Source: Candidatus Micrarchaeia archaeon
GTDB taxonomy: Archaea > Micrarchaeota > Micrarchaeia > Anstonellales > Anstonellaceae
Assembly (NCBI GenBank): GCA_041665945.1
Contig: JBAYHU010000002.1
Span: 107,350-171,349, forward strand
Length of the DNA stretch: 64,000 bases
Reading direction: 5' to 3'
Shown here: positions 688 to 54,068 of the stretch, in pieces
Position numbering within the stretch: position 1 is the first letter of the stretch
How the letters are laid out: each line of letters opens with the position of its first letter
Program-made: the position numbers and the translations under genes
Notes under the pieces: generated by a model
What the model saw: the letters and a program-made list of their open reading frames with translations, nothing else
The model's database searches: none
What the model was told of the DNA's origin: nothing

Positions 688-767
688 ACTGTCAATACCG
701 TATTAACAACATTTATAAATTTAAACTGCCCGAATCAAGCGATAAGCATTACCTCTGAGGCTCGGCT

Positions 768-1889
768 ATGTCCACCAAAAAGGATTACTACGAGATACTG
801 GGCGTTGCGCGCACGGCTACCAAGGACCAGATAAAGGACGCCTACCGCACGCTCGCGCTCAAGTTCCATCCCGACCGCAACAAGGACGCGGGCGCGGAGG
901 ACAGATTCAAGGAGATTTCTGAGGCATATGCCGTGCTGTCGGACAACGAGAAGAGGCAGACATATGACCAGTACGGGCACGCGGGATTCGACCAGCGCTA
1001 TTCGCAGGAGGACATATTCAGGAACGCAAATTTCGAGGACATTTTCCGCGAGTTCGGCTTTGCTGGCGCGGGCGGCTCGCCTTTCGACGACATGTTCGCA
1101 TCCGCGTTTTTCGGAGGGACGCCTCGAAGGCAGGTTGGCAGGGGGGCGGATTTGAGATACGACCTGCACATCTCGCTTGAGGAAGCCGCAAAGGGGCTTA
1201 CGCATGAAATCGCGTACAAGCGCAACCGCGCGTGCGAACGCTGCAACGGAAGCGGCGCGGAGCCGGGAAGCAAGGTCGCCACATGCAAGGCGTGCGGGGG
1301 CAGGGGGCAGGTTCGCCAAAGCAGGTCGCTTGGCGCGTTCGGAAGCTTCACAAGCGTGGTCACCTGCCCGCAATGCGCTGGCAACGGCAGGCGGCCGGAG
1401 AAAGCGTGCAAGGATTGCAAAGGGAGCGGCTCGCAGATTTACGATGAAAAGCTCGAGGTGGAAATACCCGCGGGCGTGGACACCGGCTCGCGGCTGCGCG
1501 TGGCCGGAATGGGCGAGCGCGGCCCCGCGGCAAGCGGCGACCTTTACGTTTTTGTCATGGTGAAGGAGCACCAGCTCTTCAAGCGGGAAGGGGACGACAT
1601 CCACCTTGAGACGCCAATCAGCTTTTCGCAGGCCGCGCTTGGCGCGGAAATAGAACTGCCCACTCTTTCGGGCAAGGCGAAGCTCAAGATTCCGGCAGGC
1701 ACGCAGACCGGCGCAATCTTCCGCCTGAAAGGAGAGGGCATGCCCCGCGTCCAATACAGCAGCAAGGGGGATCTGTTCGTGCACATCGTCGTCAGGACGC
1801 CCACCAACCTGTCCGACAAGCAGAAGAAAATTCTGTCGGACTTGGGCGACACTCCGAAGAAAGGCTTCTTTGATGGGATGTTTAGATGA
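768..1889 (+). CDS. dnaJ: molecular chaperone DnaJ (Hsp40)
   Basis: J-domain KDYYEILGV...HPDRN with HPD motif. Gly/Phe-rich linker. Four CxxCxGxG zinc-finger repeats. C-terminal substrate-binding domains. Confidence 0.95.
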   Translation: MSTKKDYYEILGVARTATKDQIKDAYRTLALKFHPDRNKDAGAEDRFKEISEAYAVLSDNEKRQTYDQYGHAGFDQRYSQEDIFRNANFEDIFREFGFAGAGGSPFDDMFASAFFGGTPRRQVGRGADLRYDLHISLEEAAKGLTHEIAYKRNRACERCNGSGAEPGSKVATCKACGGRGQVRQSRSLGAFGSFTSVVTCPQCAGNGRRPEKACKDCKGSGSQIYDEKLEVEIPAGVDTGSRLRVAGMGERGPAASGDLYVFVMVKEHQLFKREGDDIHLETPISFSQAALGAEIELPTLSGKAKLKIPAGTQTGAIFRLKGEGMPRVQYSSKGDLFVHIVVRTPTNLSDKQKKILSDLGDTPKKGFFDGMFR

Positions 1890-2124
1890 GCGAAGCGAAT
1901 CTAAACAGACAAGCATCCGTAGATGCTTGGATGTTCCGCTGAGTCGCAACGAAGCGGAACAGACAGCACGAAGCGCTGGATGTTTAGGTGAGTCAGACGA
2001 ACCTAAACAGATGACAATGCCGCAGCATTGGCGGATGTTCAGGTGAGCGAAGCGAATCTAAACAGACAGTGCCCGCAGGCACTGGATGTTCAGGTGAGCG
2101 TTTTGCAAAGCCGCAACTTTGCAA
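1876..2124 (+). repeat. tandem array of about 4.5 units (49-55 bp), each with two stem-loops and an ATG-TTY-Arg-TGA mini-ORF; ends in a TTGCAAAG/CTTTGCAA hairpin
   Basis: Units start at 1876, 1929, 1978, 2033 and 2084 with the conserved core GGATGTTyAGrTGAGCGAAGCGAAyCTAAACAGACA. The first stem shows compensatory change (GTTTAGAT/ATCTAAAC versus GTTCCGCT/AGCGGAAC). The second hairpin is variable but palindromic (AAGCATCcgtaGATGCTT, CAATGCcgcaGCATTG, AGTGCCcgcAGGCACT). Unit 1 overlaps the dnaJ stop codon. Confidence 0.8.
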
Positions 2125-18243: not shown

Positions 18244-18888
18244 ATGGCGACTCCAGAACGCAATGATGCCAAGGACAAGACGCTTTCCACCGGAACGACT
18301 ACCGTGGGGCTTGTCTGCAGCGACGGCATAGTGATGGCGTCCGACCGCAGGGCGACCATGGGATTCTTCATCGCCAACAAGGACATCCAGAAGGTTTACC
18401 AGATTGACGACAACATTTCCATGACGATTGCGGGGGGCGTGGGCGACGCTCAGGCGCTTATCCGCATGATGCAAGCTGAAACTTCGCTTTACAAGTTCAA
18501 GCACGGCAGGATGATTTCCGTGAAGGCGGCGGCATCACTTTTGTCGAACCTGCTCCACAACTACCGCTTCTACCCCTTCTACGTCCAGCTGATAATCGGA
18601 GGGTATGACGGCGAAAAGGCGGAAATATACAGCCTCGACGCCATGGGCGGGCTGACCAGCGAGAAATACGTCTCCACCGGCTCGGGCTCACCGATTGCGT
18701 ACGGGCTTCTTGAGGAGCTTTACAAGGACGGCGGCTCGGTCAAGGACAACCTCCGCGCGGCTGGCAAGGCGATTGCCGCGGCCATGAAGCGCGACGCGGC
18801 GACCGGCGAGCACGTGGATTTGATATCGATTACGAAAACAGGATTCAAGAGATACGAGAGGGCAGAAGTGGAAAAGATGCTCCAGTAG
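18244..18888 (+). CDS. psmB: proteasome subunit beta
   Basis: Propeptide then TTTVGL (catalytic Thr1 context) and GGVGDAQAL. Length and pattern match the archaeal 20S beta subunit. Confidence 0.9.
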   Translation: MATPERNDAKDKTLSTGTTTVGLVCSDGIVMASDRRATMGFFIANKDIQKVYQIDDNISMTIAGGVGDAQALIRMMQAETSLYKFKHGRMISVKAAASLLSNLLHNYRFYPFYVQLIIGGYDGEKAEIYSLDAMGGLTSEKYVSTGSGSPIAYGLLEELYKDGGSVKDNLRAAGKAIAAAMKRDAATGEHVDLISITKTGFKRYERAEVEKMLQ

Positions 18889-18948: not shown

Positions 18949-20844
18949 TTGGAATTGAAAGAAATCGAGAAGAAACTGCACGAGCTTGTGCCCAGCGAAT
19001 GCCTCATGACAAAGGTGGAGGCAGAGGGGCTTGACATTGTCATTTACCTCAAGGACATCAACGCTTTCTACGCGAACGACCAGCTAATCAAGAAGATTGC
19101 AGGCACCATCCGCAAGAGAATCCTTGTGAAGACCGACCCCTCGGCGCTCATGGCGCAGGACGAGGCAGTGAAGATAATCAAGGAGGTCGTACCCATAGAG
19201 GCCGGAGTCTCGTCCGTGAGCTTCAACCCCGAATTCTGCGAAGTCAACATCGAGTCGCTCAAGCCCGGGCTTGTAATCGGCAAGGGCGGGATGACACTCA
19301 AGACAATCATACAAAGGACGAAGTGGGCTCCGAACATACTCAGAACGCCCACCATGCCATCCTCCACCATAAAGGGAGTGCGGGCGACCATGCTCAAGGA
19401 AGCGGCGAGCAGGAAGAAGTTCTTAAACGCGCTTGGCAAGAAAATCTGCGCCCCGCAAACGGAAAAAAGCGACTGGGTAAAAGTGACCGCGCTTGGCGGC
19501 TTTTACGAGGTCGGCAGGAGCTGCGCGCTTGTGCAGACTCCTCACAGCAACGTGCTTGTGGACTGCGGCATAAACCCCGAAACTTTCGAGCCGTCCAAAG
19601 CTTATCCTTACCTTAACGCCATGAATTTGGAGCTTGACAAGATAGACGCGGTCATCCTCACGCACGCGCACATGGACCACTGCGGCTTCATACCATACCT
19701 TTACGCTTACGGATACGACGGGCCGGTGTACTGCACCACGCCCACGCGCGACCTTGCGATGCTTTTGCAGATGGACTACATCGCGATTGCGAACAAGAAC
19801 TCCAAGTACCCGCCGCCTTACGGCATCAAGGACATACAAAAGGAGCTTTCGCACATGGTCACTGTCGATTACGGCGAAGTGATTGACATCACGCCGGAAA
19901 TCAAGCTCACGTTCTACAACGCGGGGCACATCCTCGGTTCCGCCATGGTGCATTTGCACATAGGCGACGGATTGCACAACCTCGTGTTCTCGGGAGACAT
20001 CAAGTACGGATTCACGCGCCTCTTCGACCAGGCGAACACGAACTTCCCGAGGGTGGAAACGCTCTTCCTAGACTCCACGTATGGAGGCAGGAACGACATC
20101 CAGCCCAACAGGTTCGATTCCGACAAGCGCCTGATGGACATGGCTGTGCAGGTGCTGCAGCGCGGAGGCAAGGTCCTCATCCCGACGTTCTCGGTCGGCC
20201 GCTCGCAGGAAATCATGCTTGTAATGGAGGAATACGCCTCGCGCAACAAGGACTTCAACTGGCCGGTCTACATAGACGGCATGATTCTTGAGGCGTCGGC
20301 AATACACACCGCCTACCCCGAATACCTGAGGCACAACCTCCAGAGGCGCATACTTTCAAACGACTCGCCCTTCGAGTCGCCAATCTTTGAGCCGGTGAAG
20401 AAGGACCGCAAGGAAATCGCGGAAGGCGGGCCTGCAGTGATAATCGCGCCCTCGGGCATGTTGTCCGGCGGGCCTTCGGTGGAATACCTCAGGCTTCTTG
20501 CCGAGGACCCGAAAAGCGCGCTTTTCTTCGTGGGATACCAATCCTCGCTCTCGCTTGGCAGGAAACTGCAGAGGGGGATGAGGGAAATCGCCACCGTGGA
20601 TGATGAGGGCAGGGCGACATCGCTCAAGGTCAACATGCAGATTGAGACCGTGGAGGGCTATTCCGGGCACTCGGACAGGCACCAGCTCCTCTCCATGCTC
20701 AAGAACATGCGCCCCAAGCCCGAGCGGGTTTTCACGCTCCATGGCGACGAAAAGAAATGCGAGGATCTCTCGCACACCATCGCCAAGCTCATGCGCATCG
20801 AATCTCGCGCGCCGATGGACTTGGACACCATTAGGCTCAAGTAA
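18949..20844 (+). CDS. aCPSF1 (archaeal beta-CASP/MBL ribonuclease with N-terminal KH domains; FttA)
   Basis: N-terminal KH repeats (LVIGKGGMTLKTI), metallo-beta-lactamase motif HAHMDHCG, and beta-CASP region. About 630 aa. The track start codon is TTG. Confidence 0.9.
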   Translation: MELKEIEKKLHELVPSECLMTKVEAEGLDIVIYLKDINAFYANDQLIKKIAGTIRKRILVKTDPSALMAQDEAVKIIKEVVPIEAGVSSVSFNPEFCEVNIESLKPGLVIGKGGMTLKTIIQRTKWAPNILRTPTMPSSTIKGVRATMLKEAASRKKFLNALGKKICAPQTEKSDWVKVTALGGFYEVGRSCALVQTPHSNVLVDCGINPETFEPSKAYPYLNAMNLELDKIDAVILTHAHMDHCGFIPYLYAYGYDGPVYCTTPTRDLAMLLQMDYIAIANKNSKYPPPYGIKDIQKELSHMVTVDYGEVIDITPEIKLTFYNAGHILGSAMVHLHIGDGLHNLVFSGDIKYGFTRLFDQANTNFPRVETLFLDSTYGGRNDIQPNRFDSDKRLMDMAVQVLQRGGKVLIPTFSVGRSQEIMLVMEEYASRNKDFNWPVYIDGMILEASAIHTAYPEYLRHNLQRRILSNDSPFESPIFEPVKKDRKEIAEGGPAVIIAPSGMLSGGPSVEYLRLLAEDPKSALFFVGYQSSLSLGRKLQRGMREIATVDDEGRATSLKVNMQIETVEGYSGHSDRHQLLSMLKNMRPKPERVFTLHGDEKKCEDLSHTIAKLMRIESRAPMDLDTIRLK

Positions 20845-20903
20845 AGAAGGGGCAATCGTGGCGGAAGAAGCAGATACTCCTTAATCCGAAGGCTGTGAAT
20901 TTG

Positions 20904-22706
20904 TTATTGCTTCGGAGGCAGCTTGGGCGGCACTATGGGCTTGGGAGCTGCTTTCGGAGGAGTTTGCGGCTGCGCAGGGGCTTGCTGCATTGGAGGCTGC
21001 GCCGGCTGCACGGGTTTCTCCTGCGCGGGCGGCTGCGCCTGCGTTTGCTGTTGCGACTGCTGCAAAGCAACGGGCTTTTCCTGCACCGGGGGCTGTTGCA
21101 TCTGCGAAGGGGAACGGAAATCCGGCTGCTTGGCTGGCTGGGATTGCTTGGGCTGCCAGAGGGGCTGCGATGAAGACTCCTTTTGCTGTGGCTGGAAAGA
21201 AGGCTGGTCGTCGCCGGGCTTTTCCCTGCGCGCGGGCAGTATCCTCGATATCAGGCTCTTTTTCGGCTCCTGAAGCGAAATGTCGATTGCCTGCTGGTCC
21301 TGCTGGGGCTGATTTTCGCTTCCTGGCAGGACAGGCGCAGGGCGCCTTGTCTGCTGCGTGGAGCGGTAAAGCATGCGCAGGTAGTTGAGTATGAAGCTGA
21401 AGGAGCCTCCCAAGTTGTTTTTCGCGAAAAACACCACGCCGGCGAGGATGGCTATCCCGATTGCGACAAGCGCCCAGAGGAAAAAGTCCTCGGTCTGCTT
21501 CTTCGTGTCAGGCGGGAGCGTCGTGGAAGTCTGCCCGCTTGGCACCGGCACCGCATACTCGAGCCCGACCGACGCCTCGGCAACATCGTACTTGTTGGAT
21601 GCCTTGACCGAGATGATGGTATTGGACTGTATGCACGGGCGCACGAAGAGCATTCCCTGCTCGTCCGTGCTTGCCGTCATGTTCGTGGTAGTTTTGCCGT
21701 CGCTGCTCGTGAACACGACCTGCAGGGGCAGTTGCTTTCGCGGGTCGGAGATTTTTGCCGTGACGCGGTAGCAGTTCTCCCCTTCCCGGACCGGCGCAAG
21801 TGGCTCGATTGTGAGGAGGTGGGGGAGCTTTATCGTGTCCGGCATGGAGCCCTCCGGCACATAGGCGATGTTGAGCTGGTGCTCGTCCACGACCATGGTC
21901 ATATTGATTGAGATTCCGACGAACGCGTCGAAGCTCGCAGCGCCGTTGCCATCCGTGGTCGCAGTCTGCTGCCGCCCGCGGTAATAGTAAGTGATTGGCT
22001 GGTTGGCGAACGGCTCCCCGTCGGGCGAGAAGAATGTCAGCGGGGAAATGATGCGCGTCGCCTGCTGGGGGCCCTGGTTGTTTTCAGGAGACCAGCTGTC
22101 CGAGATAATGACATTTATCGAGCGGCGCCCGTCCTTGTCCGCGCTCGCGCTGTCGCTGTAAAAAAGCTTGCGGTTCTCGCCGGAAATCACGTATCCGGAA
22201 AATCTCAGCCCCGTGGGCACGCGCAGTATCGCAACGCCGTTCAGGAAAGGCTCGATTACCGGCGAGCCGTATATGGAAACCTGCGAGCCCGGAGGGAGGT
22301 TTTCGGGCGGGACCGCCTTCACGGTGACGTTTTCGAGCTTGAAGGGGATGGTGAGGCGCAGGTTCTTCTGCCCGGCGTTGTCCACCTCGAATTGCGAGTT
22401 GCTTCCCGCCCAGTAGTATGTCGAGATGCTCACGGAATAGGATTTTTTCTCCTGCGACTGCGGGACTGAATTGGAAAGCAGCACGGAGAACGAGCCTTCC
22501 TCGTTTGTCTGCCCCTGCTCGCGCCCGTCGGCAGTTGAGTCGGGCAGCGCCTTTTGATAAAGTATTGTGACCGACGCGTATTTGACGGGCATGCCATTCA
22601 TGTCCACGACCGTTATGTTGAGCGCCTGGCTCCAGAGGGCTGACACCGGCTGCGCTGCCAGAAGCAGGAAGAGCGCGAAGATTGCGAATGAACTTGCTCT
22701 CCTCAT
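20904..22706 (-). CDS. large secreted/surface protein with C-terminal TM anchor and Pro/Gln-rich cytoplasmic tail
   Basis: Signal peptide MRRASSFAIFALFLLLAAQPVSA. Beta-rich extracellular domains. TM helix FFLWALVAIGIAILAGVVFF. A tail of more than 150 aa rich in P/Q/K. The ATG at 22704-22706 overlaps the stop of the upstream mini-gene. Confidence 0.7.
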   Translation of the reverse strand: MRRASSFAIFALFLLLAAQPVSALWSQALNITVVDMNGMPVKYASVTILYQKALPDSTADGREQGQTNEEGSFSVLLSNSVPQSQEKKSYSVSISTYYWAGSNSQFEVDNAGQKNLRLTIPFKLENVTVKAVPPENLPPGSQVSIYGSPVIEPFLNGVAILRVPTGLRFSGYVISGENRKLFYSDSASADKDGRRSINVIISDSWSPENNQGPQQATRIISPLTFFSPDGEPFANQPITYYYRGRQQTATTDGNGAASFDAFVGISINMTMVVDEHQLNIAYVPEGSMPDTIKLPHLLTIEPLAPVREGENCYRVTAKISDPRKQLPLQVVFTSSDGKTTTNMTASTDEQGMLFVRPCIQSNTIISVKASNKYDVAEASVGLEYAVPVPSGQTSTTLPPDTKKQTEDFFLWALVAIGIAILAGVVFFAKNNLGGSFSFILNYLRMLYRSTQQTRRPAPVLPGSENQPQQDQQAIDISLQEPKKSLISRILPARREKPGDDQPSFQPQQKESSSQPLWQPKQSQPAKQPDFRSPSQMQQPPVQEKPVALQQSQQQTQAQPPAQEKPVQPAQPPMQQAPAQPQTPPKAAPKPIVPPKLPPKQ

Positions 22707-22858
22707 CAATCCTCACCCGTAGTTTCGAAGACCGGCGGGAAATCCTTTACCAGCTTCAGCCTTGCCCCGCAGTCAGGGCAAATCATTATTTCCCCGACCT
22801 GAAGCCCGGGCTCAAGCGCGATGTGGAACGTGCATGCCGGGCACTCAGATATTGCCAT
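22706..22858 (-). CDS. LysW-like zinc-ribbon small protein (50 aa), below the 60-aa ORF-track cutoff
   Basis: MAISECPACTFHIALEPGLQVGEIMICPDCGARLKLVKDFPPVFETTGED has a CPxC...CPDCGA zinc ribbon with a short acidic C-terminus, like the LysW/ArgW amino-group carrier proteins. Its stop TGA shares the A with the ATG of the surface-protein gene. A TATA-like tttaaaa lies upstream. Confidence 0.55.
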   Translation of the reverse strand: MAISECPACTFHIALEPGLQVGEIMICPDCGARLKLVKDFPPVFETTGED

Positions 22859-22920
22859 GTTATCGCACGTCCTTCGGCGGCTATGGTTTTAAAGGTTGCA
22901 CAGGCGGTGGCGGCGGGAAA

Positions 22921-24216
22921 TCAGGGCTTTACCCTTACCCTGTCCCTCGGGAAGAGCACCGCCTCGCGGATGTTGTGCAAGCCGCAGATTTTCATTGTGA
23001 AGCGGTCAAGCCCGATGGACCAGCCGGCATGCGGCGGGGCGCCGACGCGGAACGCGTTTATGTAGAACTCGAAGTCCGCGGGGTTCAGCCCCCTAGCCTT
23101 GAGCTGCTCAATCAGCACTTCGGGCCTGTGGACACGCTGCGCGCCCGAGGAAATTTCCAATCCCTCGTAATTCAGGTCGTAAGCGTGGCAGATTTTCGGG
23201 TTGGATTCGTCGGGCTGCGAGTAGAACGCGCGCACAGCGGTCGGCCACTCGGTGATGAAATAGGTGGAGTAGCCGAGCACTTCGGTGAGCTTCGCCTCTG
23301 TTTCGCGCGAGAAGTCCTCGCCCCAAACGAATGTGACGCCGGCGGCGTTGAGCTTGTCCACAAGCTCGGTGTAGGTGTGGCGCGGGATTGATGCCGGAAC
23401 GGCAAGCTCGCGGTTGAGGGTTTTGAGTTCAGCCGCGCAATTTTCCTTCACGCGGGAGAGCACGTGGAGAACGACTGCTTCAAGCGCGTCGATGGCATCC
23501 TTGGGCGTGGCAAAGCCAAGCTCCAAGTCCATCTGCGTCGCCTCGTTCAAATGCGTGAGCGTGTTGTGCTTCTCGGCGCGGAAAACTGGCACGGTCATGA
23601 ACACCTTGTCCATGCCGCCGATTACCGCGAGCTGCTTGTAAAGCTGCGGGGACTGCACAAGATATGCCTCCTTCTCGAAGTATTGCACCTTGAACAGGTC
23701 TGCGCCGCCCTCTGTCGCGGCTTCCACGATTGTGGGAGGGTGGAGCTCCACTGCGCCAAGCATGCGGCATTTTTCGCGGAATGCCTGCGCTATTTCAGAG
23801 CGGATGCGGAATATGGCGGCAGTGTTCGCCGTGCGCATGTCGACATAGCGGTAGTCGAGCCGCACTTCGAGGTCCGCCGGCACCTTGCCAGTCACTTCGA
23901 ATGGCACCTTGGTTGTGATTGGATTCAGAACGGTGAAACTCGTGGGAAGGAGTTCGCAGCCCGCTTCAGCCATCTTGCTTGCGACCACTTTGCCAGTAAC
24001 CGTTACCACTGTTTCTTTCGGCTGGGACATTGCCGCAAGAACAGCATCGGGCTCGCGCCCGTTCTTCGCCGTAACCTGTATGATGCCGCTCCTGTCGCGC
24101 ACCTGCACGAACTTGAGCTTGCCCAAGTCGCGCACCTCGTGCACCCAGCCTGCAATCGTTATTTCCTTTTCAAGAAGGCTTTTCGCCTCGGATATGTAAT
24201 GTGTCCTGTACATCAT
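22921..24216 (-). CDS. aspS: aspartyl-tRNA synthetase (class IIb, archaeal type; AsnRS not excluded)
   Basis: N-terminal OB fold, QSPQLYKQ, class II motifs and the C-terminal GAPPHAGWSIGLDRFTMKICGLHNIREAVLFPRD. Confidence 0.8.
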   Translation of the reverse strand: MMYRTHYISEAKSLLEKEITIAGWVHEVRDLGKLKFVQVRDRSGIIQVTAKNGREPDAVLAAMSQPKETVVTVTGKVVASKMAEAGCELLPTSFTVLNPITTKVPFEVTGKVPADLEVRLDYRYVDMRTANTAAIFRIRSEIAQAFREKCRMLGAVELHPPTIVEAATEGGADLFKVQYFEKEAYLVQSPQLYKQLAVIGGMDKVFMTVPVFRAEKHNTLTHLNEATQMDLELGFATPKDAIDALEAVVLHVLSRVKENCAAELKTLNRELAVPASIPRHTYTELVDKLNAAGVTFVWGEDFSRETEAKLTEVLGYSTYFITEWPTAVRAFYSQPDESNPKICHAYDLNYEGLEISSGAQRVHRPEVLIEQLKARGLNPADFEFYINAFRVGAPPHAGWSIGLDRFTMKICGLHNIREAVLFPRDRVRVKP

Positions 24217-33564: not shown

Positions 33565-34086
33565 ATGGTGCGTATGGATTTTATTGAGGAAATCGTGCGG
33601 GTGAAAAAACCGGCGTTGCGCCTGAACGACAACCTCAGGGAGCAGTATTCGGCAATAGCGTTCAAGTTCGGCTATTTCGAGGCGCAATACCCCTGCTGGC
33701 TCTACTTCATGAGGAAGGACGGGCAGACCGCGGCATTCGAGCTGCAGTTCGGCAATGTCTCCGAGTTCAAGACCTCGCTTGAGAGGCTCAACAAGTCCAA
33801 CGCGCAGATATGCTTTTTCATCACCAGCTCGCGCGCGCACACCATGCGCCTTGAGGCCGTGCGCGGCTTGCTGCTCCGCAATTTCCAGATAAAGGAGCAG
33901 AAATTCGTGATAATGGACATCGAGAACGGAAGGTGCCTGCGCGTGAATTTCGAGTGGGACGAGTTCGAGCGGGGGATAGATGCGGATTCCCAGCAGGGCA
34001 TGATAGAGAAGGAAAAGCCGCTATTCCGCGAGGTGCGCCGCAAGAAAATCTACGGCAGGCGCGGCGAGCACAAGGAACAGGACTGA
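33565..34086 (+). CDS. hypothetical protein
   Basis: 173-aa ORF, coding-like. No motif. Confidence 0.45.
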   Translation: MVRMDFIEEIVRVKKPALRLNDNLREQYSAIAFKFGYFEAQYPCWLYFMRKDGQTAAFELQFGNVSEFKTSLERLNKSNAQICFFITSSRAHTMRLEAVRGLLLRNFQIKEQKFVIMDIENGRCLRVNFEWDEFERGIDADSQQGMIEKEKPLFREVRRKKIYGRRGEHKEQD

Positions 34087-34283
34087 TGCCGCAGGGCGGA
34101 AGTGGCGGCGCGCGGAAGCCGCCCCTATGGCAAGGAACAGGGCGGGCTGCGCTTCGGCAACAGGGCTGGTGGGCTACTCTCCGGCTTTTGGCAGGCGGGA
34201 TTTCGTCTTACATGGTTTCCCACCAAATACAAAGATTTATATACCATTACCGCCATAAAAACAGTGTTATCAGGGGGTTGAAT

Positions 34284-35819
34284 ATGAATAAATTCGCATT
34301 CGTGCTGGGCATTGTTTTCCTCTTCGCAGCGGCGGCAGCCGAAAACTACACGCAGTCATTCACCGTGGATGACTGGCTGAAGGTAACGCGCTTTGCCGAA
34401 ACTTCGGAGAGCAGCGGCTGCACTTCGGTGACCGACTCCTGCTCTGACACTGGCGCGCTTCTTCCCAGCTACATGGGCGGCGTGTCGGGCGCATTCACCT
34501 CGGTAACGCTCACTTTCGAGAACATGGGCTCAAGCGACAGGCAGGAAGTCCAGCTGTCCGAAAGCCTCTCCTACATACCGGACGGGGCAAAGGTCGTATT
34601 CGACCCCCAGCCCGCATACACTGACGGAAGGACCGCCACTTGGACTGCGCAGACCATGAAAGCCGGCGCAAAGATGGCGATGCATTACACTTACACGGCA
34701 AAGAGCAGCGCGGATGATTTCGCGAGCGCCATAAACACGCAGGTCAAGGCGAAATCCACCGCGATTTCATTCACCGCGCCGAGGTCGGCAAAGGTCGGCG
34801 AGCGCGTCCCGATATTCGCGATGACTCCCGAGGGCGCGCCGCTTTCAGGAGCGAAAGTCACAATCACATATCCTGACGGGACAATCCAGCAGGTGAAGAC
34901 CGACTCAAAGGGGAGCGCGTCGTTCGTTGCCGCGAAGGAAGGGTTCTACACCTATTCCATCGAGGGGTACTCGATGACGAAACTCTCCTCGACTGAAACC
35001 GCGCCAGCCGAAATTCCGGCAGCTGCGGCAGCAGCCGTGGCATCTGACGGGCTCTTCTCATCCATCTCAGGAATCCTGCCCGCGCTTGCGGCGATATTCG
35101 TGATTGCCGTGGTGGCGCTCATTGCATACAACTTCTTCACCTCGAGAAAAGAGGAGGAGGAATACGTTGCGGCACCGCCCCAGCAGCCGGCGGGCAGCAA
35201 CCCATCAGCCCAGCGCCCGGTGCCCGAGCCTCCTCAGGCGCCCCACGCGTATTCGAATTCGGGCGCGCAGGGAGTGGCAACTTACAGCCAGCAATACACT
35301 TTCGGTTCGCAGAAGAAAGCTGATGCCCCCAAGCCAGCCCCGGTTGCTTCGCAGCCGCAATCAGCGGAAGGCAAAACATACGGCAGCCGCGAGCAGTCGC
35401 CCGCGATGAGGCCTGTGATTGTGCCACCGCACATGCTAAACAGGCAGGCGGAGAAGTATTCTGAGAGCACCTCGTCAGACGAGGACGTGGAGAACGAGCT
35501 TGCCTCGCTTGAAAGGAAGGCGCGCGAGGAGGGCGAAGGCGCCACGCACGAGCAGGAAATCGAGAACGCGATATCCGAGCTCGAAGCCATACGCCAGAAG
35601 CTGCGCGAGCGCAAGGAGCAGATGGACTCACTTGAGAGCCGCCTGTCCGGCTCGAAAAAAAAGGAATCCGAAGAGGAGGCAGAAGCCGATTCGGACGAGC
35701 CTGACGAGCCGACCGCCTCGAGGAAGGCGCCTGCAAGAAGGGCGGCTCCTGCGCCGAGGGTGCTTCCGCCCAAGGGCAAGAAGCTCAAATTCGCGACGCA
35801 CGGCATAAGGCGCAAGTAG
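34284..35819 (+). CDS. secreted/surface protein with C-terminal TM anchor and charged coiled-coil cytoplasmic tail
   Basis: Signal peptide MNKFAFVLGIVFLFAAAAA after a GGGGG SD and TATA tttatata. TM LPALAAIFVIAVVALIAYNFF. Acidic/basic tail. The track ORF 33933..35819 carries a spurious N-terminal extension. Confidence 0.65.
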   Translation: MNKFAFVLGIVFLFAAAAAENYTQSFTVDDWLKVTRFAETSESSGCTSVTDSCSDTGALLPSYMGGVSGAFTSVTLTFENMGSSDRQEVQLSESLSYIPDGAKVVFDPQPAYTDGRTATWTAQTMKAGAKMAMHYTYTAKSSADDFASAINTQVKAKSTAISFTAPRSAKVGERVPIFAMTPEGAPLSGAKVTITYPDGTIQQVKTDSKGSASFVAAKEGFYTYSIEGYSMTKLSSTETAPAEIPAAAAAAVASDGLFSSISGILPALAAIFVIAVVALIAYNFFTSRKEEEEYVAAPPQQPAGSNPSAQRPVPEPPQAPHAYSNSGAQGVATYSQQYTFGSQKKADAPKPAPVASQPQSAEGKTYGSREQSPAMRPVIVPPHMLNRQAEKYSESTSSDEDVENELASLERKAREEGEGATHEQEIENAISELEAIRQKLRERKEQMDSLESRLSGSKKKESEEEAEADSDEPDEPTASRKAPARRAAPAPRVLPPKGKKLKFATHGIRRK

Positions 35820-36543: not shown

Positions 36544-37455
36544 TCACTGGTAAAGTATCTTCGGGGCTATTGCGCCGCGAAGAAGCGTGCCTATTGCCTC
36601 TGAGGATAGCGAGCCGAATATGCCACGCTTCCCGCCGGACGATGAAAGGGCGCACAGGCGCGGCTCGTCGGATTCGATTCCGCCCATTTTCGCAGCCTGT
36701 TTTATTGCGTCTTTCCTGTTGCCAAGCGAATCGACCAGCCCTATTTTCTCAGCCTGCCTGCCGGTCAGTATGCGCGCGTCAAGGATTGTCTTGAAGCCCG
36801 CCATGTCGAGGCGCGAGCCCCTGCCCTCTAAGACTGCGGACTTGAAGTCCTCGAAGCTTTCATCCACTATGCTTTGGAAAACCGCACGCTCCTCCTCGGT
36901 CATGGGGCGGGACGCCGTTCCCATGTCCTTCATGCTGCCCGACTTTACCGAAGTCTCGTTGTAGCCGAGTTTCGCGAACAATCCGGACATGTCGGAAAGC
37001 GTGGCGCGCGCGCCGATGTTGCCAGTGAGCGACAGCGGGTTTGCCACTATGTAGTCCGTCCCTGCCGCGACATAGTAGCCGCCGGATGCCGCCATTTCGT
37101 TTATGTAGGCGACTTTCGACTTGTTGACTGCGCGCAGCGCGTCATAAATCCTGCGGGAGGCGACAGCCGAGCCGCCGGGCGAGTCGATGATTACAAGGAT
37201 GGACTTTATGTCCGGGCGGTTTGCCGCGGACTCTATTTCCTCAGCGATTGTGTCGCCGCCCTTTATTTCGTCTGAAAACAGGGTGGAGGGCGTATCGTCG
37301 CTCACTATCTCGCCTTTTATCTCGACCACGCCCACGCAGCCCGCCATGGGAAGCGCTGCGAATGCGTAGATTGCGACTATTGCAAGCGCGAAAACGAACA
37401 ATCCGCCGATAAGAATCGGGAGGTAATTCTGCCCGTCTGTTTTTTTGAAAGCCAT
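36544..37455 (-). CDS. sppA: signal peptide peptidase SppA (S49 family)
   Basis: N-terminal TM helix and the ClpP-fold motifs ILVIIDSPGGSAVAS and EMAASGGYYVAAG. Confidence 0.85.
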   Translation of the reverse strand: MAFKKTDGQNYLPILIGGLFVFALAIVAIYAFAALPMAGCVGVVEIKGEIVSDDTPSTLFSDEIKGGDTIAEEIESAANRPDIKSILVIIDSPGGSAVASRRIYDALRAVNKSKVAYINEMAASGGYYVAAGTDYIVANPLSLTGNIGARATLSDMSGLFAKLGYNETSVKSGSMKDMGTASRPMTEEERAVFQSIVDESFEDFKSAVLEGRGSRLDMAGFKTILDARILTGRQAEKIGLVDSLGNRKDAIKQAAKMGGIESDEPRLCALSSSGGKRGIFGSLSSEAIGTLLRGAIAPKILYQ

Positions 37456-37534
37456 TCCATCCCCTCTCGCACAGGGGATAAAGTATGTTCAAACGTTAAT
37501 AAACTTGCTCTCATGTAAATTAGCGTTGGTCCGC

Positions 37535-38071
37535 ATGGACGTTTTGCAGATGATGGCGCAGGCAGTGATATTCATCCTTCCCTCTTATTTTGCGAACTCC
37601 ATACCCGTTCTTCTGGGAGGGGGCGCCGCAATCGACGGGGGCAGGAAATTTTCCGACGGAAACAGGCTTTTCGGCGACGGAAAGACAATCCGCGGGTTTT
37701 TCGCGGGCATTTTTGCGGCATTGCTTGTCGGCTCGATTCAGGCGGTTTTCCTGCCGGGCACCGCGTGGGACATCTACGGCGGGAATCCGCACACTTACGT
37801 TTATGCGGGGCTCCTGCTCGGCACCGGCACCATGATTGGCGACCTGGCGGGAAGCTTCATCAAAAGGAGGCAGGGAGTCGCGCGAGGGAAGCAGTCGGTC
37901 ATCCTCGACCAGCTCACTTTCCTTTTTGTCGCGCTCGCATTCGCATATCCGATTGCCTCGCGCATGATTACAATTGAGGCAGTTGTTTTCCTGTTCATAC
38001 TCACTTATTTCGCGCACGTCGCAGCGAACGTGCTTGCGCACAAGTGGGGCTTGAAGAAAGTGCCGTGGTAA
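37535..38071 (+). CDS. carS: CDP-archaeol synthase
   Basis: PVLLGGGAAIDGGRKFSDGNRLFGDGKTIRGF is the CarS/DUF46 signature. The internal ATG at 37535 was chosen because the track start at 37445 would overlap sppA. Confidence 0.75.
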   Translation: MDVLQMMAQAVIFILPSYFANSIPVLLGGGAAIDGGRKFSDGNRLFGDGKTIRGFFAGIFAALLVGSIQAVFLPGTAWDIYGGNPHTYVYAGLLLGTGTMIGDLAGSFIKRRQGVARGKQSVILDQLTFLFVALAFAYPIASRMITIEAVVFLFILTYFAHVAANVLAHKWGLKKVPW

Positions 38072-38072
38072 G

Positions 38073-38729
38073 TCAGCATATGTTTCGGTAAGTGATGCAT
38101 CTTAGTTTGTCCAAGAAATCGACGAATTCGATTGCACGGGATACTTCCAGAAAAGCCACTGAGACTGCGACCAAACCATGGTACATCAGATGGTCTGATT
38201 GGCTGTGCATGATGTCGAGGCACATGGCGCCATCGCACATGACCCTCTCGAGTTCGTCGCCAAAGGTCTTCAAAAAAACCGCAAGCCGTTCCTTGTCCAC
38301 TCCGGAAAAAAGCGCGATTGCCTCGTCTTTCCTGTCCTCGAATTTTTGCTTAACAAAATCGTTCATGCTTTTGCGCTCGTAAGGGGTTTCTTCCATCGCA
38401 ATGATGGAAAGCAGGAAATCCCTGAATTTTTTGGAGAATGCCGGGTCGATTTCGGATATCGTTTCCGCCTTGAAGCAGAGGAGCACCATCTCGTGTTTGG
38501 TCACTTTGTTGAAATTCGATTGGTTTGCTTTTACTTCATTTGCGACTTGCGAGGACTGGCTTTTGGAAGACAGAAAAAATGCGTAATCCTTGAATGGCAT
38601 CTTTCGGATAGTTTCCAACTGCGCAGGGTATTTGGCCTGCAGGAATCTGGAATACTTGCCTGAAACCGATAGTGTCAGGGCTGGCCTTTTAACTATGGCT
38701 TCTTTGGCAGTCCAGGCTTTGCGCTCCAT
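38073..38729 (-). CDS. hypothetical protein (low-GC gene)
   Basis: 218 aa with no motif. GC about 47%, clearly below the flanking genes. Confidence 0.45.
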   Translation of the reverse strand: MERKAWTAKEAIVKRPALTLSVSGKYSRFLQAKYPAQLETIRKMPFKDYAFFLSSKSQSSQVANEVKANQSNFNKVTKHEMVLLCFKAETISEIDPAFSKKFRDFLLSIIAMEETPYERKSMNDFVKQKFEDRKDEAIALFSGVDKERLAVFLKTFGDELERVMCDGAMCLDIMHSQSDHLMYHGLVAVSVAFLEVSRAIEFVDFLDKLRCITYRNIC

Positions 38730-38772
38730 GAATATCCAGCTATTCAGAAAAGAAGTGGTTATAAATGTATTT

Positions 38773-39171
38773 TCAAAACAAGACGGTTCCCTTCTCGCCG
38801 TCCACTTGAAGTTCCATCCCGTCTTTCAGCGCAAAAAGCGCGCCTTTTTCCAGCTTGTCCACCATGGGGATTTTCGAGATGATTGCGCCCACGGCAATTA
38901 TCGGCTCTGCCTCTGCGTTGATTATTGCCGCAGGCGCGACTCCGTTTTTCTTGAGCTGGAGCATAACATAGGAGCCGACCGTGGAGCCCTTGCCGCGGGG
39001 GAAAATAAGCACCCTGCCTGCCACGCACTTGCCCTCAATTGCGTGCCCTGCCTCGACAACCATCCCCGTTTTCGGGTCAATGCCGCCGAGGAATGAAATA
39101 GCGTCTTTTGAGACAAGCGCAATGCCCTTGCCGATTCCTCGCGAAATTGACCTTCCTTTTATCGTTGCCAA
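38773..39171 (-). CDS. phosphomevalonate dehydratase small subunit (aconitase-X swivel domain, DUF126)
   Basis: About 130 aa, with GRVLIFPRGKGSTVGSYVMLQL typical of the AcnX small subunit. Immediately downstream of the AcnX large-subunit gene. Confidence 0.75.
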   Translation of the reverse strand: MATIKGRSISRGIGKGIALVSKDAISFLGGIDPKTGMVVEAGHAIEGKCVAGRVLIFPRGKGSTVGSYVMLQLKKNGVAPAAIINAEAEPIIAVGAIISKIPMVDKLEKGALFALKDGMELQVDGEKGTVLF

Positions 39172-39190
39172 GCTTTCACCTGAAAAATTT

Positions 39191-40363
39191 TCACCTGAAT
39201 ATTATGTCTTCGATGTCGCCGAATATTACCTTCTGCTTCTGGAGTGTCTGGAGGTATTTTGCCGCCTTGCCCGAATTGCACGCTGTTATGTGGAATCCCA
39301 TGTCCTCAAGCGGGCAGACCACCATGCAGGTATCCGCGACCACGCGCCCGCCAGCCTGCGCTATGGTTTCGGTGAAGCCCGCCTTGTCGGCTTTTTCCTT
39401 TGTCTGCCTTGCTGTGCAAACCCATAATTCGCATGCCACCTTCTTCCCTTTCACAAGCGAGGCGACCTCGGAAATTTCATCAAGCGAGGCGTGCGGGCAG
39501 CCAATTGCCACGATTTGCGGGCGTTCAGGCAAGCCCATCTTCGCTTTCATCTCGGAGATTTCCTTTTTGCCAATCGTGATTTTTTCCGGCTTCTCCGCCA
39601 CGGAAAATTCGGGAGTTACCCCCTTCATGTTGAAAAGCGCGTTTGAGCCCCAAGCAGCCATGGAAGCGCCAAGCGCCTTGAGCCGGTCATCGCTTGCCGC
39701 CTTGATTCCCGTGAATGCGACATTCTTTCCTTTTGATGCGCCGCCCACGTATGCCCCAAGCGCGCCGAAATCCGTGGAGGAGGAAAGCGGGCATTCCACA
39801 TGCGCGGCAAAATCGCAAACCCTGTTTTCATCGAGGTGATAGCCGTATTCGGGGGTTGCCCCGCAAATCGCGGCTGCGAGTGCAGAGGGACCGCCTTCGC
39901 GGTTTGTCCGCGCCCCGAGAACTGAATTGCAGAATACTACTGCAGAGGATTCGGACCACGCCACGTGCTCGCCAACCTTCGGGCGGATGCCCACGAGGTA
40001 GGGTGTGCAGGTGCAGCTCTGCGCAATGCCCATTTTCGCGTAAGCCGCAAGCACTTCAAGCTGCTTTTCGGCAAATGCCGCAGGCACTTTCATCTCCTTC
40101 CACTGCTCGCGGTCCATGCCCGCAGGGTTGAGGAAAGATGGAACGCGCACTTTCGCCCCGTTTTTCGCCATGTCGTTCAAGTAGGAGAGGCCGGCTTCGC
40201 CTATTGTCTTGTAGGATACTCCCGCGATTTGGGCGGAAGTGATGGAAACCGTTCGCTTGGCGCCGTAAATCTTCCCGAGGGCGACTAATATTTCCATTGA
40301 CTGGCGGGCTGCCTCGCCCGATTCCCCGTCGAACATTTTTTGCTCCTGCGCACTAAGCTCCAT
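39191..40363 (-). CDS. phosphomevalonate dehydratase large subunit (aconitase X catalytic domain, DUF521)
   Basis: AcnX family features across about 390 aa. Start MELSAQEQ at 40361-40363, just after the upstream gene's stop; the track ORF carries an N-terminal extension. Confidence 0.75.
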   Translation of the reverse strand: MELSAQEQKMFDGESGEAARQSMEILVALGKIYGAKRTVSITSAQIAGVSYKTIGEAGLSYLNDMAKNGAKVRVPSFLNPAGMDREQWKEMKVPAAFAEKQLEVLAAYAKMGIAQSCTCTPYLVGIRPKVGEHVAWSESSAVVFCNSVLGARTNREGGPSALAAAICGATPEYGYHLDENRVCDFAAHVECPLSSSTDFGALGAYVGGASKGKNVAFTGIKAASDDRLKALGASMAAWGSNALFNMKGVTPEFSVAEKPEKITIGKKEISEMKAKMGLPERPQIVAIGCPHASLDEISEVASLVKGKKVACELWVCTARQTKEKADKAGFTETIAQAGGRVVADTCMVVCPLEDMGFHITACNSGKAAKYLQTLQKQKVIFGDIEDIIFR

Positions 40364-40367
40364 TGTT

Positions 40368-41933
40368 TCACTTCTTTTTCTTTCCCGGCGGGATGTTAAA
40401 TATGGATGCGTCAAGCCCGCCCTTTTTCCCAAGCTCGCCATTGATGTAGTCGAGAAGGATTTTCTTGAGCCGCGTGTAATCTTCCCTACCCACCTGCTGG
40501 TTGCAGAATGCATAGGCGAGCGCCTTGGCGTTGAAGCAGAACATCGCGTCGTTCACGTTCTCGCAGTTGTGGCAGAAGAACGAGTCCCTTGACGAGTACG
40601 AGCAGTCCACTTCGAAGCAGCCCTTCAGGCTGGTGGAATCGAACACGTTGATGCAGAATTGCGACTGCAAAATCCTGAAATAGCCGCCGAAGATGTGCTC
40701 GGATTTTATCACAGCAGAGGAATACGCGGAATATTTCGAATCCGTGGTGTCCTGCAGCTTGTAGATGACGCTCCCGCCGTAGAGGTTGGGCGTGTCCACG
40801 CACCTGTCGTGCACCCCGTCCACGAATTCGTGGGAGAACAGCGCTACTTTTGAAACGCGCGAAAGCGCCTCGCGCAGGGTGAGCTCCTCGCCGGGCTTGA
40901 TTGCGATTGGATGCTGCCTCGACGCTTCTATTCCCTCCTCGTGAGTCACCAGCCTGTCTGCGGGTATGTCCTTTATCGTGGGCAATGCGCCCACCTTGTA
41001 AGTCGGCGTGCCCTTCGCGCCCTTCACCTTTTTCACCGGAATGGCGCGAGTCAGTAGCCACTTGCCGAAGCGCCTGATGTCTTTATGCTCCTGCCCGAGC
41101 ACTATGCGGCAGGTGGAGGAAAACGCCTCCTCGATTTTCGGCGGGGGCGGGCTGTCAAACGCGATTTTCTCCTCGGGAATGCCCTTTTTGTCCCTGCCGA
41201 AATAGGCGATGTCCGCAACCGAGAAAAGCCTCTTCTTGCTGCGAAGCTCGCCCGCCATTTCGGACAGGAGCTTTTTCTTGAGGCGCAAAAACTCGTCTTT
41301 CGGAAGCTCGAGATTGCCGATTACGTTGCGCTTGGAGTGGAGGTTGAAGGCGAAGATGCAATTCGAGCATCCCACGCAGTTGAAGGAGTAGTACATGTCC
41401 GAGAGGCTGGTGCCGAAATAAGTCTCGAAGCAGCGGCTCGCCCCCACTCCGTCGCACATCCTCATGCCGAACTGCGCCTTGGGAAAGCCGCACACGCCGA
41501 ACACGTATTCCGCCTCGCGGAGCGTGGAAACGTACGCGCCGCATTTCACCTGATAGAGGCTGTGCCCGTGGAATATCGAGGACGAATCCACGCAGTTGTC
41601 CACGTCCGAAACCTCGGTGTTCCTGCCGAAGAGCTTGTTGCCGCAGAAAACCGCGCGCTCGGAAGCCGCGGAGAAAAGCGAATCGATGTCCTTTATTTCA
41701 TTGATATCAAGCGGGGGGAATTTCACCAGCGGGATTTCCTCCTGCGAGATGAATTTCCCGTCCTGCGGATAGAAGCTGTTCGAGACCATGACCGGTTTTC
41801 CCGAGACAAACGAGCGCTTCATCTGATAGGGGAACATCATTTCCTCGAAGTAGGGCGCAAAATCGCGCAGGCTGCCTATTTCCTCGCCGAAAATGACTTT
41901 CGATGTTGATTTGAATGCCTGCTCGACGTCCAT
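40368..41933 (-). CDS. uncharacterised Cys-rich protein embedded in the mevalonate operon
   Basis: About 520 aa with Cys clusters (CGFPKAQFGMRMCDGVGASRC, NCVGCSNC, FFCHNCENVNDAMFCFNAKALAYAFC). No match to a known mevalonate-pathway enzyme. Tightly packed between the UbiD-like and AcnX genes. Confidence 0.55.
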   Translation of the reverse strand: MDVEQAFKSTSKVIFGEEIGSLRDFAPYFEEMMFPYQMKRSFVSGKPVMVSNSFYPQDGKFISQEEIPLVKFPPLDINEIKDIDSLFSAASERAVFCGNKLFGRNTEVSDVDNCVDSSSIFHGHSLYQVKCGAYVSTLREAEYVFGVCGFPKAQFGMRMCDGVGASRCFETYFGTSLSDMYYSFNCVGCSNCIFAFNLHSKRNVIGNLELPKDEFLRLKKKLLSEMAGELRSKKRLFSVADIAYFGRDKKGIPEEKIAFDSPPPPKIEEAFSSTCRIVLGQEHKDIRRFGKWLLTRAIPVKKVKGAKGTPTYKVGALPTIKDIPADRLVTHEEGIEASRQHPIAIKPGEELTLREALSRVSKVALFSHEFVDGVHDRCVDTPNLYGGSVIYKLQDTTDSKYSAYSSAVIKSEHIFGGYFRILQSQFCINVFDSTSLKGCFEVDCSYSSRDSFFCHNCENVNDAMFCFNAKALAYAFCNQQVGREDYTRLKKILLDYINGELGKKGGLDASIFNIPPGKKKK

Positions 41934-41941
41934 TAACGCAC

Positions 41942-43258: not shown

Positions 43259-43787
43259 CTTTCCACCTTTTGAACATCTTGTTTTCAACGCCTATCTGGT
43301 CAAGCGTTTTTCCCACGACGAAATCCACCATGTCCGAAACTGTTTTCGGCTTGTGGTAAAAGCCCGGGCACGCAGGCAGGATTACTCCGCCGGCAAGCGT
43401 GATTGTCTCCATGTTTTTCAGCGCTATGTAGGAGAGAGGGGTTTCGCGAACGACGAGGACAAGCTTTTTCCTCTCCTTGAGCGCGACTTCGGAGGCGCGA
43501 GTGATTAGCGTGTTGCCAACTCCGTTGGCTATTTCGCCAAGCGTTTTGAGAGAGCAGGGGCAGATTACCACTGCGTCGGCGGCGTTTGAGCCGGATGCAA
43601 AGGGGGAGGAGAAGTCCGATTCGGAATAGTCGCATTTCGGGAGGGTTTCGCCTTCGGCTTTTGCGACTTTTTCCGCCCCGGAACTTGCCACGACTGCGAC
43701 ATCATGCTTTCCCGCGCGGAGAACCTCTGCCAGCCGCAGACCATAGGCTATGCCCGAAGCTCCGGTTATCGCCAATAAAATGCGCAT
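43242..43787 (-). CDS. ubiX: flavin prenyltransferase UbiX (prenylated-FMN synthase)
   Basis: MRILLAITGASGIAYGLRL and CPCSLKTLGEIANG. About 180 aa. Confidence 0.85.
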   Translation of the reverse strand: MRILLAITGASGIAYGLRLAEVLRAGKHDVAVVASSGAEKVAKAEGETLPKCDYSESDFSSPFASGSNAADAVVICPCSLKTLGEIANGVGNTLITRASEVALKERKKLVLVVRETPLSYIALKNMETITLAGGVILPACPGFYHKPKTVSDMVDFVVGKTLDQIGVENKMFKRWKDGKGQ

Positions 43788-43838
43788 ATTGTCCTTTCTC
43801 CTCCACCATTTTAAAGGGGTTTTGCCTATAGGGAGGAT

Positions 43839-53158: not shown

Positions 53159-53449
53159 TTAATCTTTTTCTATGTCTTGCTCAACAGTTTTAATGATATG
53201 CATCAGCCGGAGATAGGAATTTATCGAGGCGCGAAGCGACACAGGGTCGTCCGCCTTTATCTCCACGCGCACGGTTTTTCCGGACAGGAAAACCTTCGAG
53301 CCGCCGCGGTGCGAGAAGTCCGCCTCCTGCAATAATGCGTCATAAGCCGCTTTTGAGGAGCGGGCGGAATCGAATGTGAGGGAAAGGGACGCGGCGCCCG
53401 TTACTTTCCGGGCTTTGGTTGCCTTTTCATTTTTCATATGAAACGCCAA
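53159..53449 (-). CDS. pcc1: KEOPS subunit Pcc1-like
   Basis: About 90 aa with DPVSLRASINSYLRLMHII typical of Pcc1. Conserved position between the Brix and prefoldin-beta genes. Confidence 0.55.
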   Translation of the reverse strand: MAFHMKNEKATKARKVTGAASLSLTFDSARSSKAAYDALLQEADFSHRGGSKVFLSGKTVRVEIKADDPVSLRASINSYLRLMHIIKTVEQDIEKD

Positions 53450-53909: not shown

Positions 53910-53920
53910 GTTCGCGGCGT

Positions 53921-54058: not shown

Positions 54059-54068
54059 AGTACGACCT

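Follow-up and report, generated by a model that had tools for sequence, protein, structure and literature searches.

Amino-group carrier proteins of the LysW/ArgW type are the closest described relatives of the element reported here. They are represented by structures from Thermus thermophilus (3wwl, 3wwn, 5eio), Thermococcus kodakarensis (5k2m) and Sulfolobus tokodaii (3vpb), and by the models PF21344, TIGR01206 and NF041070. The element is a gene for a 50-aa zinc ribbon in a 64,000-nt stretch of DNA from a Candidatus Micrarchaeia archaeon of the Anstonellaceae (GenBank assembly GCA_041665945.1, contig JBAYHU010000002.1, positions 107,350 to 171,349), and the whole of this stretch is called the window below. 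The gene directly precedes a gene for a predicted membrane-anchored surface protein, designated here as the partner (Table 1). With LysW and ArgW the ribbon shares the size of about 50 aa, the acidity, the CPxC...CPxCG zinc ribbon, the strand order and, by analogy, likely also a protein-docking function. It differs from them in lacking the C-terminal EDWGE and the flexible arm of about 10 residues, and in having invariant residues of its own, MA[IV]SECPxCT[FY]H and PP[VI]F. Also, in the loci examined it never lies beside genes for LysX, LysZ, LysY, LysJ or LysK, but always beside the surface-protein gene. On the best reading of the locus, which is given moderate confidence, the ribbon derives from LysW and would act in the cytoplasm as a partner of the surface protein.

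Three further systems are similar in part. SlaB, the S-layer stalk of Sulfolobales (8qox_B), is built like the partner, with a Sec signal peptide, beta-sandwich domains in series and one C-terminal membrane helix, but the structural similarity is only generic (Foldseek rank 17, template modelling (TM) score 0.20). Unlike SlaB, the partner has no coiled-coil stalk predicted in its model, and one motif is conserved in its cytoplasmic tail. The partner gene has no SlaA-like neighbour, and no S_layer_N gene was found within the window. In ZitP and other MJ0042-type ribbons (2nb9; PF13719), a cytoplasmic two-knuckle zinc ribbon that serves as a protein-protein docking module is tied to a single-pass membrane protein with an extracytoplasmic domain. 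In ZitP, ribbon and type II protein form one fusion with the ribbon at the N-terminus, whereas the ribbon described here is a separate product beside a type I protein, and the similarity between the two is marginal (Foldseek E 0.54, TM-score 0.55; Pfam E 0.004, below the cut-off). The archaeal zinc-finger micro-proteins (Haloferax HVO_0758 and HVO_2753, Halobacterium Brz) are likewise free-standing proteins of 50–60 aa with a single C4 zinc ribbon, and they are often overlooked or misnamed. They show no significant match in sequence (E 0.02–0.5, well short of the cut-offs), belong to other ribbon families and have no conserved linkage to a surface protein. The library of representative proteins that was searched is rich in other non-canonical LysW-like ribbons without obvious known function (P0018, P0019, P0021, P0024, P0027, P0086, P0106, P0131). 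Some are tandem arrays of two or three ribbons, one is a protein of 1715 aa in which 15 stretches resemble ribbons, and a further set has ...EEEK at the end in place of EDWGE.

The translation of the ribbon gene, MAISECPACTFHIALEPGLQVGEIMICPDCGARLKLVKDFPPVFETTGED, is exactly the 50-aa peptide given in a preliminary description of this DNA, and it is encoded on the minus strand. Cysteines C6, C9, C27 and C30 are the predicted zinc ligands, and M1, E5, C6, P7, C9, H12, C27, P28, C30 and P41 are invariant across the ribbon family. The protein is acidic, with a pI of 4.4 in the window and of 4.2–4.9 across the family, where the net charge is -3 to -7. A word-indexed search recovered 13 homologous clusters of 50–64 aa with 64–98% identity. 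The scan of one genome per species gave 20 loci, all of them in metagenome-assembled genomes (MAGs) of Micrarchaeota, Micrarchaeia or Anstonellaceae, and a metagenome scan added further loci. The small open reading frame (ORF) is present in the orthologous loci and conserved at the amino-acid level. Across 36 distinct genes the median proportion of synonymous differences (pS) is 0.68, i.e., synonymous sites are saturated, the median proportion of nonsynonymous differences (pN) is 0.26, and the median dN/dS is 0.18. The 50-aa ORF is a real gene under purifying selection. Identity of the ribbon between lineages is 70–84%, comparable to that of AspRS, FttA and PsmB (76–87%), while that of the partner is only 31–49%. 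The gene had been described as unannotated, and it is indeed absent from the ORF track used then; in GenBank, however, the same protein is recorded as MFA6489428.1, [quoted passage not shown]. It adjoins the partner (MFA6489427.1, "hypothetical protein WCT52_01990") on the 239,346-bp contig. An Rfam scan of positions 20700..23100 found no RNA family, and a search of the window for further small LysW-like or CxxC...CxxC ORFs found only DnaJ and ribosomal protein L37ae.

The globular domain of the ribbon shares ancestry and fold with LysW. The Pfam model PF21344 (Zn_ribbon_LysW) matches the window ribbon with 40.3 bits, above the gathering score of 27, so that the suggested relation to LysW is statistically real. 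When the ribbon-family profile was searched against the PDB, LysW chains of T. thermophilus and T. kodakarensis were found (E 6e-6 and 1.5e-5), and hhalign of the family against 11 canonical LysW gave a probability of 99.2% (E 8e-20). In the AlphaFold2 (AF2) model of the ribbon, the predicted local distance difference test (pLDDT) score is 85. The six best PDB matches of this model in Foldseek are all LysW chains (TM-score 0.79–0.85, rmsd 1.1–2.4). The Thermus chains (5eio_C, 3wwn_B, 3wwl) are the closest, with TM-score 0.82–0.85 and rmsd 1.1–1.6 A, and the fold matches include the LysW complexes 3wwn, 5eio, 5k2m and 3vpb. Models of Brz, HVO_0758, RNA polymerase (RNAP) subunit P and TFIIB ribbons all scored far below their cut-offs. 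In a hidden Markov model search of the library, only seven representatives at 50% identity were recovered below 1e-10, and canonical LysW appeared at about 1e-6, so the ribbon family is a narrow, distinct branch.

The earlier position-by-position alignment with LysW and ArgW is correct as to homology of the zinc ribbon in sequence and fold, but it does not extend to membership in the working carrier family. The ribbon missed both NCBIfam equivalogs, with 28.5 bits for TIGR01206 (cut-off 53.2) and 28.7 bits for NF041070 (cut-off 75). All 11 canonical LysW among the 150 best representatives end in DWGE ([ED]DWGE), while W-G-E is absent from the ribbon family, and the hhalign alignment ends just before this invariant DWGE. 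The C-terminus of the ribbon is not conserved among orthologues: the last residue in the 36 genes is E in 22, D in eight, G in four, and Q and R in one each. After the conserved PPVFE strand there are only 4–8 variable residues, compared with the flexible acidic arm of LysW of about 10 or more residues. When every plausible ORF of the window was scanned with Pfam, no ATP-grasp/RimK protein (LysX/ArgX), semialdehyde dehydrogenase (LysY), class-III aminotransferase (LysJ) or M20 peptidase (LysK) was found. The single AA_kinase, which was considered as LysZ, was rejected, because it is an isopentenyl phosphate kinase (199 bits with NF040647, cut-off 120; 27 bits with the LysZ model, cut-off 194). 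The statement that no LysX, LysZ or LysY genes are nearby thus holds for the whole window. Annotated flanks of nine related loci (L001, L002, L006–L010, L032, L033) are also free of carrier pathway genes for lysine or arginine. The lysA gene codes for the last enzyme of the diaminopimelate route, which proceeds without LysW. In a survey of 163 Micrarchaeota genomes, amino-acid biosynthesis was mostly incomplete, and lysine synthesis, where reported, was traced by lysA (PMC12892359). By equivalog scores, terminus, arm and gene context in the window and in the fetched flanks, the ribbon does not qualify as a functional carrier of the LysW/ArgW type. Its designation as "LysW" in the databases is probably mistaken, because the attachment tail is absent and the gene always lies directly before one surface-protein gene.

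The pairing of the two genes, taken from this single locus as a tight coupling to a secreted protein, was found to be conserved across Micrarchaeota, and the protein is also membrane-anchored. In all 35 distinct loci with enough downstream sequence, all of them from Micrarchaeota, a partner homologue starts at -4 to +12 nt from the end of the ribbon gene (blastp E 1e-15 to 1e-60). Searches for partner homologues with the full protein, and with a 7-sequence profile without the low-complexity tail, gave at least 5–6 proteins. The pairing was also tested in reverse, by three independent look-ups and by tblastn over the fetched loci. A 50-aa PF21344 gene lies directly upstream of the partner homologue in 3/3 look-ups, and in the 447 kb of fetched DNA there is no partner homologue without a ribbon just upstream and at most one partner per locus. 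The upstream neighbour of the pair differs between lineages (AspRS, FtsX, a cold-shock protein (CSD) or a divergent block containing ApbE), which indicates that the two genes move together. The upstream genes for AspRS, a NusA-like KH protein and Alba were considered as functionally linked to the pair, but this was rejected, because that neighbourhood occurs only in close relatives. On the other side, the convergent genes for FttA/aCPSF1 (18949..20844, plus strand) and proteasome beta (18244..18888, plus strand) stay beside the cassette in distant lineages (L001, L007, L032). A Na+/H+ exchanger gene lies between them in one relative.

A sister group of the ribbon family (MAVSECPKCAAHIIS...SAEEEE; also P0020, P0025, P0037 and P0050) was targeted in the metagenome scan, and mostly more loci of the main family were recovered. 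The one sister-group contig obtained, the high-GC L034, carries the ribbon gene at 819..1016 (plus strand) and no gene for a surface-protein partner. The ribbon gene is convergent there with an ORF at 1035..1748 (minus strand) that is M20-peptidase-like by eye. For these reasons, the sister group could represent a separate LysW relative, perhaps one that is carrier-like.

At the junction one nucleotide is indeed shared by the stop codon of the ribbon gene and the start codon of the partner gene, but the motif is TGATG and not the 4-nt ATGA proposed at first. ATGA overlaps are present in orthologues L010, L021, L023 and L024. The last codons of the ribbon gene are GGT GAG GAT in the window and AAG GAG GAA, GGC GAA GAG and similar in orthologues, and their purine runs, which resemble a Shine-Dalgarno (SD) sequence, lie 3–16 nt before the next ATG. 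At positions -16 to -3, a match to AGGAGGTGATC of at least four nucleotides occurs in 32 of the 35 junctions (background 23%), and a match of five nucleotides in 16 of the 35 (background 5.6%). The Gly/Lys-Glu-Glu/Asp ending of the ribbon therefore appears to be dictated, at least partly, by the ribosome-binding site of the downstream gene. The acidic tail, first regarded as a LysW feature, is better explained in this way, and since the codons double as a ribosome-binding site, the tail is acidic yet variable in detail. A/T-rich boxes (TTTAAAA, CTAAT[AT]TAAATG, CTTAAAG, TTTTAAGC) were seen by eye about 25–40 nt upstream of the ribbon gene in nearly all of the 36 orthologous loci, while a narrow regular expression for the same box matched 13/36. 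The TATA-like box before the ribbon ATG points to a promoter that belongs to the pair alone and to a very short leader. As far as the sequence alone tells, the two genes have the marks of an operon: the same strand, an overlap or a gap of a few nt, an SD inside the first gene and a TATA-like box before it. This suggests that both genes are transcribed as a separate unit, the first almost without a leader and the second led by an SD. A scan for sigma-70 promoters and terminators gave no result that is meaningful in an archaeon. A programmed frameshift that would fuse both ORFs was rejected, because the spacing (-4 to +12 nt) and the relative frame vary among orthologues.

The architecture is the same in all 27 complete partner proteins: the signal peptide is followed by about 380 aa of ectodomain, a single membrane helix near residue 410–445 and a cytoplasmic tail. 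The AF2 model of the window protein has a mean pLDDT of 72, with strand-only blocks at residues 22–120, 124–200, 218–293 and 299–382 and a helix at 402–452. Foldseek matched it to tandem immunoglobulin (Ig)-like arrays, including adhesins, Gram-positive pilins and complement MG domains, with SlaB among them as mentioned above; the global TM-score is low for all matches, so that the similarity is only generic. Pfam found weak matches to Big_1, MG4 and CarboxypepD_reg. The cytoplasmic tail varies from 37 to 174 aa across orthologues, with a mean column conservation of 0.11. The sole conserved cytoplasmic segment is a juxtamembrane motif with the family pattern R-[PF]-[IV]-x-[EN]-Y-[LV]-[RH] followed by a basic cluster, in which Y442 is invariant and R444 nearly so. 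It ranks fifth by conservation among the 12-aa segments of the whole partner. The 30 residues past the membrane helix have a net charge of +2 to +11.

According to the favoured reading, the ribbon would descend from a LysW amino-group carrier and, having lost the C-terminal EDWGE arm, would no longer carry amino acids. Its gene would, throughout Micrarchaeota, stand first in an operon of two genes that has a promoter of its own. Overlapping or abutting genes and the ribosome-binding site in the last codons of the ribbon would couple their translation, so that both proteins would be made together. The ribbon would act as a protein-binding module, like the globular domain of LysW, which docks electrostatically on its enzymes, and the putative target is the basic juxtamembrane motif that the surface protein has on its cytoplasmic side (R-P/F-I-x-E-Y-L-R and the basic cluster). 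In this way it would be an intracellular subunit or adaptor of a cell-envelope protein, and the surface protein itself might serve as a SlaB-type stalk of the S-layer or as an adhesin for contact with the host. A docking domain on the tail of the partner is the best-supported role, and it is suggested by likeness to the LysW-enzyme complexes. The analysis establishes that the gene is real, its LysW homology and fold, the lost carrier tail, the invariable gene pairing, the coupling signals and the topology of the partner. Physical binding of ribbon and partner, the binding site and the cellular role are proposed here with reserve.

Several points weigh against this reading. The charges of the ribbon (-3 to -7) and of the 30 residues after the partner helix (+2 to +11) are opposite, but such complementarity is weak evidence, because the positive-inside rule predicts positive charge after any membrane helix. 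The ribbon is far more conserved than the partner as a whole, and its main partner could be another, conserved cytoplasmic component, although the gap in conservation is equally compatible with a fast-evolving exposed ectodomain. Gene adjacency is a sign of co-expression, not of interaction. The idea of an S-layer stalk draws solely on the general architecture, on the SlaB match at rank 17 and on a published suggestion: the S-layer protein of Ca. Micrarchaeum harzensis has no clear membrane anchor, and a membrane-anchored stalk is possibly needed (bioRxiv 10.1101/2021.04.28.441871). By a rough estimate, the ectodomain of four Ig-like domains and the Thr/Pro-rich linker are plausibly long enough for such a stalk, which makes it a lead only. 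The more specific version, in which the LysW fold, known so far solely from metabolic amino-group carriers, was exapted in Micrarchaeota as a cytoplasmic subunit docking on the juxtamembrane motif of a SlaB-like stalk or host-contact adhesin, is rather doubtful in its entirety. Such a subunit would form a minimal cross-membrane link between cytoplasm and surface of these episymbiotic cells for anchoring, control of assembly or contact signalling.

Among other explanations, a dedicated cytoplasmic chaperone or targeting factor that binds the nascent surface protein transiently, at its signal peptide or tail, during export and membrane insertion seems unlikely. Translational coupling would place the ribbon where the partner is synthesised and the pairing is strict, but there is no similarity to known export chaperones, and the conserved cytoplasmic motif fits a chaperone and a stable complex alike. 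Just as improbable is a role as a small zinc-finger regulator which, in the manner of haloarchaeal Brz or other zinc-finger micro-proteins, would bind to nucleic acid or to the transcription or translation machinery and control the surface-protein gene or others. Small single-domain zinc-ribbon proteins of archaea are often regulatory, the ribbon is as conserved as information-processing proteins, and in part of the lineage it sits after Alba, the NusA-like KH protein and AspRS. Moreover, one JGI record names a homologue [quoted passage not shown]. However, the strong acidity (pI 4.2–4.9) is unfavourable for nucleic-acid binding and makes the ribbon a poor candidate for such a regulator. Its fold family is a known protein-docking module (3wwn, 5eio, 5k2m, 3vpb), and matches to Brz, HVO_0758, RNAP subunit P and TFIIB are far below the cut-offs. 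The neighbourhood of information genes is not conserved, while the link to the surface protein is.

A still working LysW/ArgW carrier, loaded at its acidic C-terminus by a LysX/ArgX encoded elsewhere and linked to the surface protein only incidentally, is very improbable. The homology to LysW is clear and 30 of the 36 genes end in E (22) or D (8). Synthesis of almost every amino acid is reported for Anstonellales and some other orders of Micrarchaeota (PMC12892359), so that an ArgW-type arginine route is possible genome-wide. Against it stand the absence of EDWGE, invariant in the 11 canonical LysW, a terminal G, Q or R in 6/36 genes, a tail of 4–8 residues after the globular domain that is encoded by the SD of the next gene, and equivalog scores of about half the cut-offs. 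No pathway gene lies within the window or in the annotated flanks of related loci, and the operon linkage to the surface protein is strict (35/35 loci). The selection pattern (64–98% amino-acid conservation in 13 clusters, saturated synonymous sites, dN/dS 0.18) refutes the idea that the ORF is fortuitous or encodes a leader peptide without function of its own, translated only to open the downstream ribosome-binding site, as might be supposed from a short ORF that overlaps the next start and has an SD in its tail. The confident fold prediction and invariant zinc ligands also speak against it. The cytoplasmic LysW-derived partner of the surface protein is retained as the best reading.

Table 1. 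Features of the ribbon–partner cassette and of the lipid and mevalonate gene region in the window (positions are those of the window).
Feature	Position	Strand	Remarks
LysW-fold zinc-ribbon gene, 50 aa	22706..22858	minus	ATG 22858-22856, TGA 22708-22706
TATA-like box TTTAAAA	22887..22893	minus	35 nt upstream of ribbon ATG; putative promoter element
Shine-Dalgarno-like GGTGAGG	22711..22717	minus	5-11 nt before partner ATG; encoded by Gly-Glu-Asp tail codons of ribbon gene
TGATG stop/start overlap of ribbon and partner genes, 1 nt	22704..22708	minus	TGA 22708-22706 and ATG 22706-22704 share 22706
Partner gene, 600 aa, predicted type I membrane protein	20904..22706	minus	MFA6489427.1, hypothetical
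Signal peptide, aa 1-24, MRRASSFAIFALFLLLAAQPVSA before and LW after the cleavage site	22635..22706	minus	hydrophobic segment 6-24 in nearly all orthologues; cleavage site predicted
Ectodomain, aa 25-385, four tandem Ig-like beta-sandwich domains	21552..22634	minus	AF2 model
Transmembrane helix, single, aa 408-426	21429..21485	minus	hydropathy, window protein and 26 orthologues
Juxtamembrane cytoplasmic motif, aa 433-446, GGSFSFILNYLRML	21369..21410	minus	candidate ribbon docking site
Q/P-rich low-complexity cytoplasmic tail, aa 455-600	20907..21344	minus	unconserved
CDP-archaeol synthase CarS	37445..38071	plus	
AcnX swivel-domain/DUF126 protein	38773..39171	minus	
UbiD-family decarboxylase	41942..43288	minus	
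Isopentenyl phosphate kinase	43839..44594	plus	NF040647 199 bits

The window contains other genes of interest. A second surface-type protein is encoded at 33933..35819 (plus strand), with the start likely at an internal MNKFAF.... Its signal peptide and beta-rich ectodomain are followed by one membrane helix and a long cytoplasmic tail that is charged and of low complexity. No Pfam match, upstream zinc-ribbon gene or EYLR-type motif was found for it, and lacking the ribbon and the motif it is not a paralogue of the cassette partner. Many DPANN archaea are said to lack lipid biosynthesis, which is why the lipid and mevalonate genes that lie together at 37445..44594 are notable; an archaeal modified mevalonate route may be encoded there. 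Directly downstream of the UbiD-family gene, and with slight overlap, a cysteine-rich protein of 535 aa without Pfam or NCBIfam match is encoded at 40368..41975 (minus strand). An Arg/Ala-rich ORF of 404 aa at 735..1949 (minus strand), though the longest at this place, is a shadow, and the real gene appears to be DnaJ at 768..1889 (plus strand), with the J-domain start MSTKKDYYEILGV... and CxxC zinc-finger repeats. A run at 53159..58216 (minus strand) encodes Pcc1, L37ae, two RNase PH-type subunits (exosome Rrp41/Rrp42-like), an Rrp4-like KH protein, SBDS and proteasome alpha. Prefoldin beta is recorded just upstream of this run (52784..53152, minus strand), and a pair of PIN-domain and MazE-like genes is beside it (58329..59073, minus strand).

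In the literature on LysW in Micrarchaeota or on "LysW-like" proteins, nothing was found on this ribbon family, nor any description of a LysW-fold ribbon coupled to a surface protein across Micrarchaeota. The gene itself is already in the databases under a name that its sequence does not support. Both GenBank and IMG label the family "lysine biosynthesis protein LysW" in DPANN genomes, and this unsupported label can inflate the inferred biosynthetic capacity where host dependence is judged from such calls. No S-layer anchor or host-contact protein is known from this phylum, in which the partner, an Ig-array protein anchored in the membrane, is conserved and occurs as a single copy. If the reading as a cytoplasmic partner is true, this would be the first LysW-type ribbon that works outside amino-acid metabolism, a carrier reduced to a docking domain, and the two-gene cassette with its cytoplasmic handle would be a concrete candidate for an envelope or host-contact module of Micrarchaeota.

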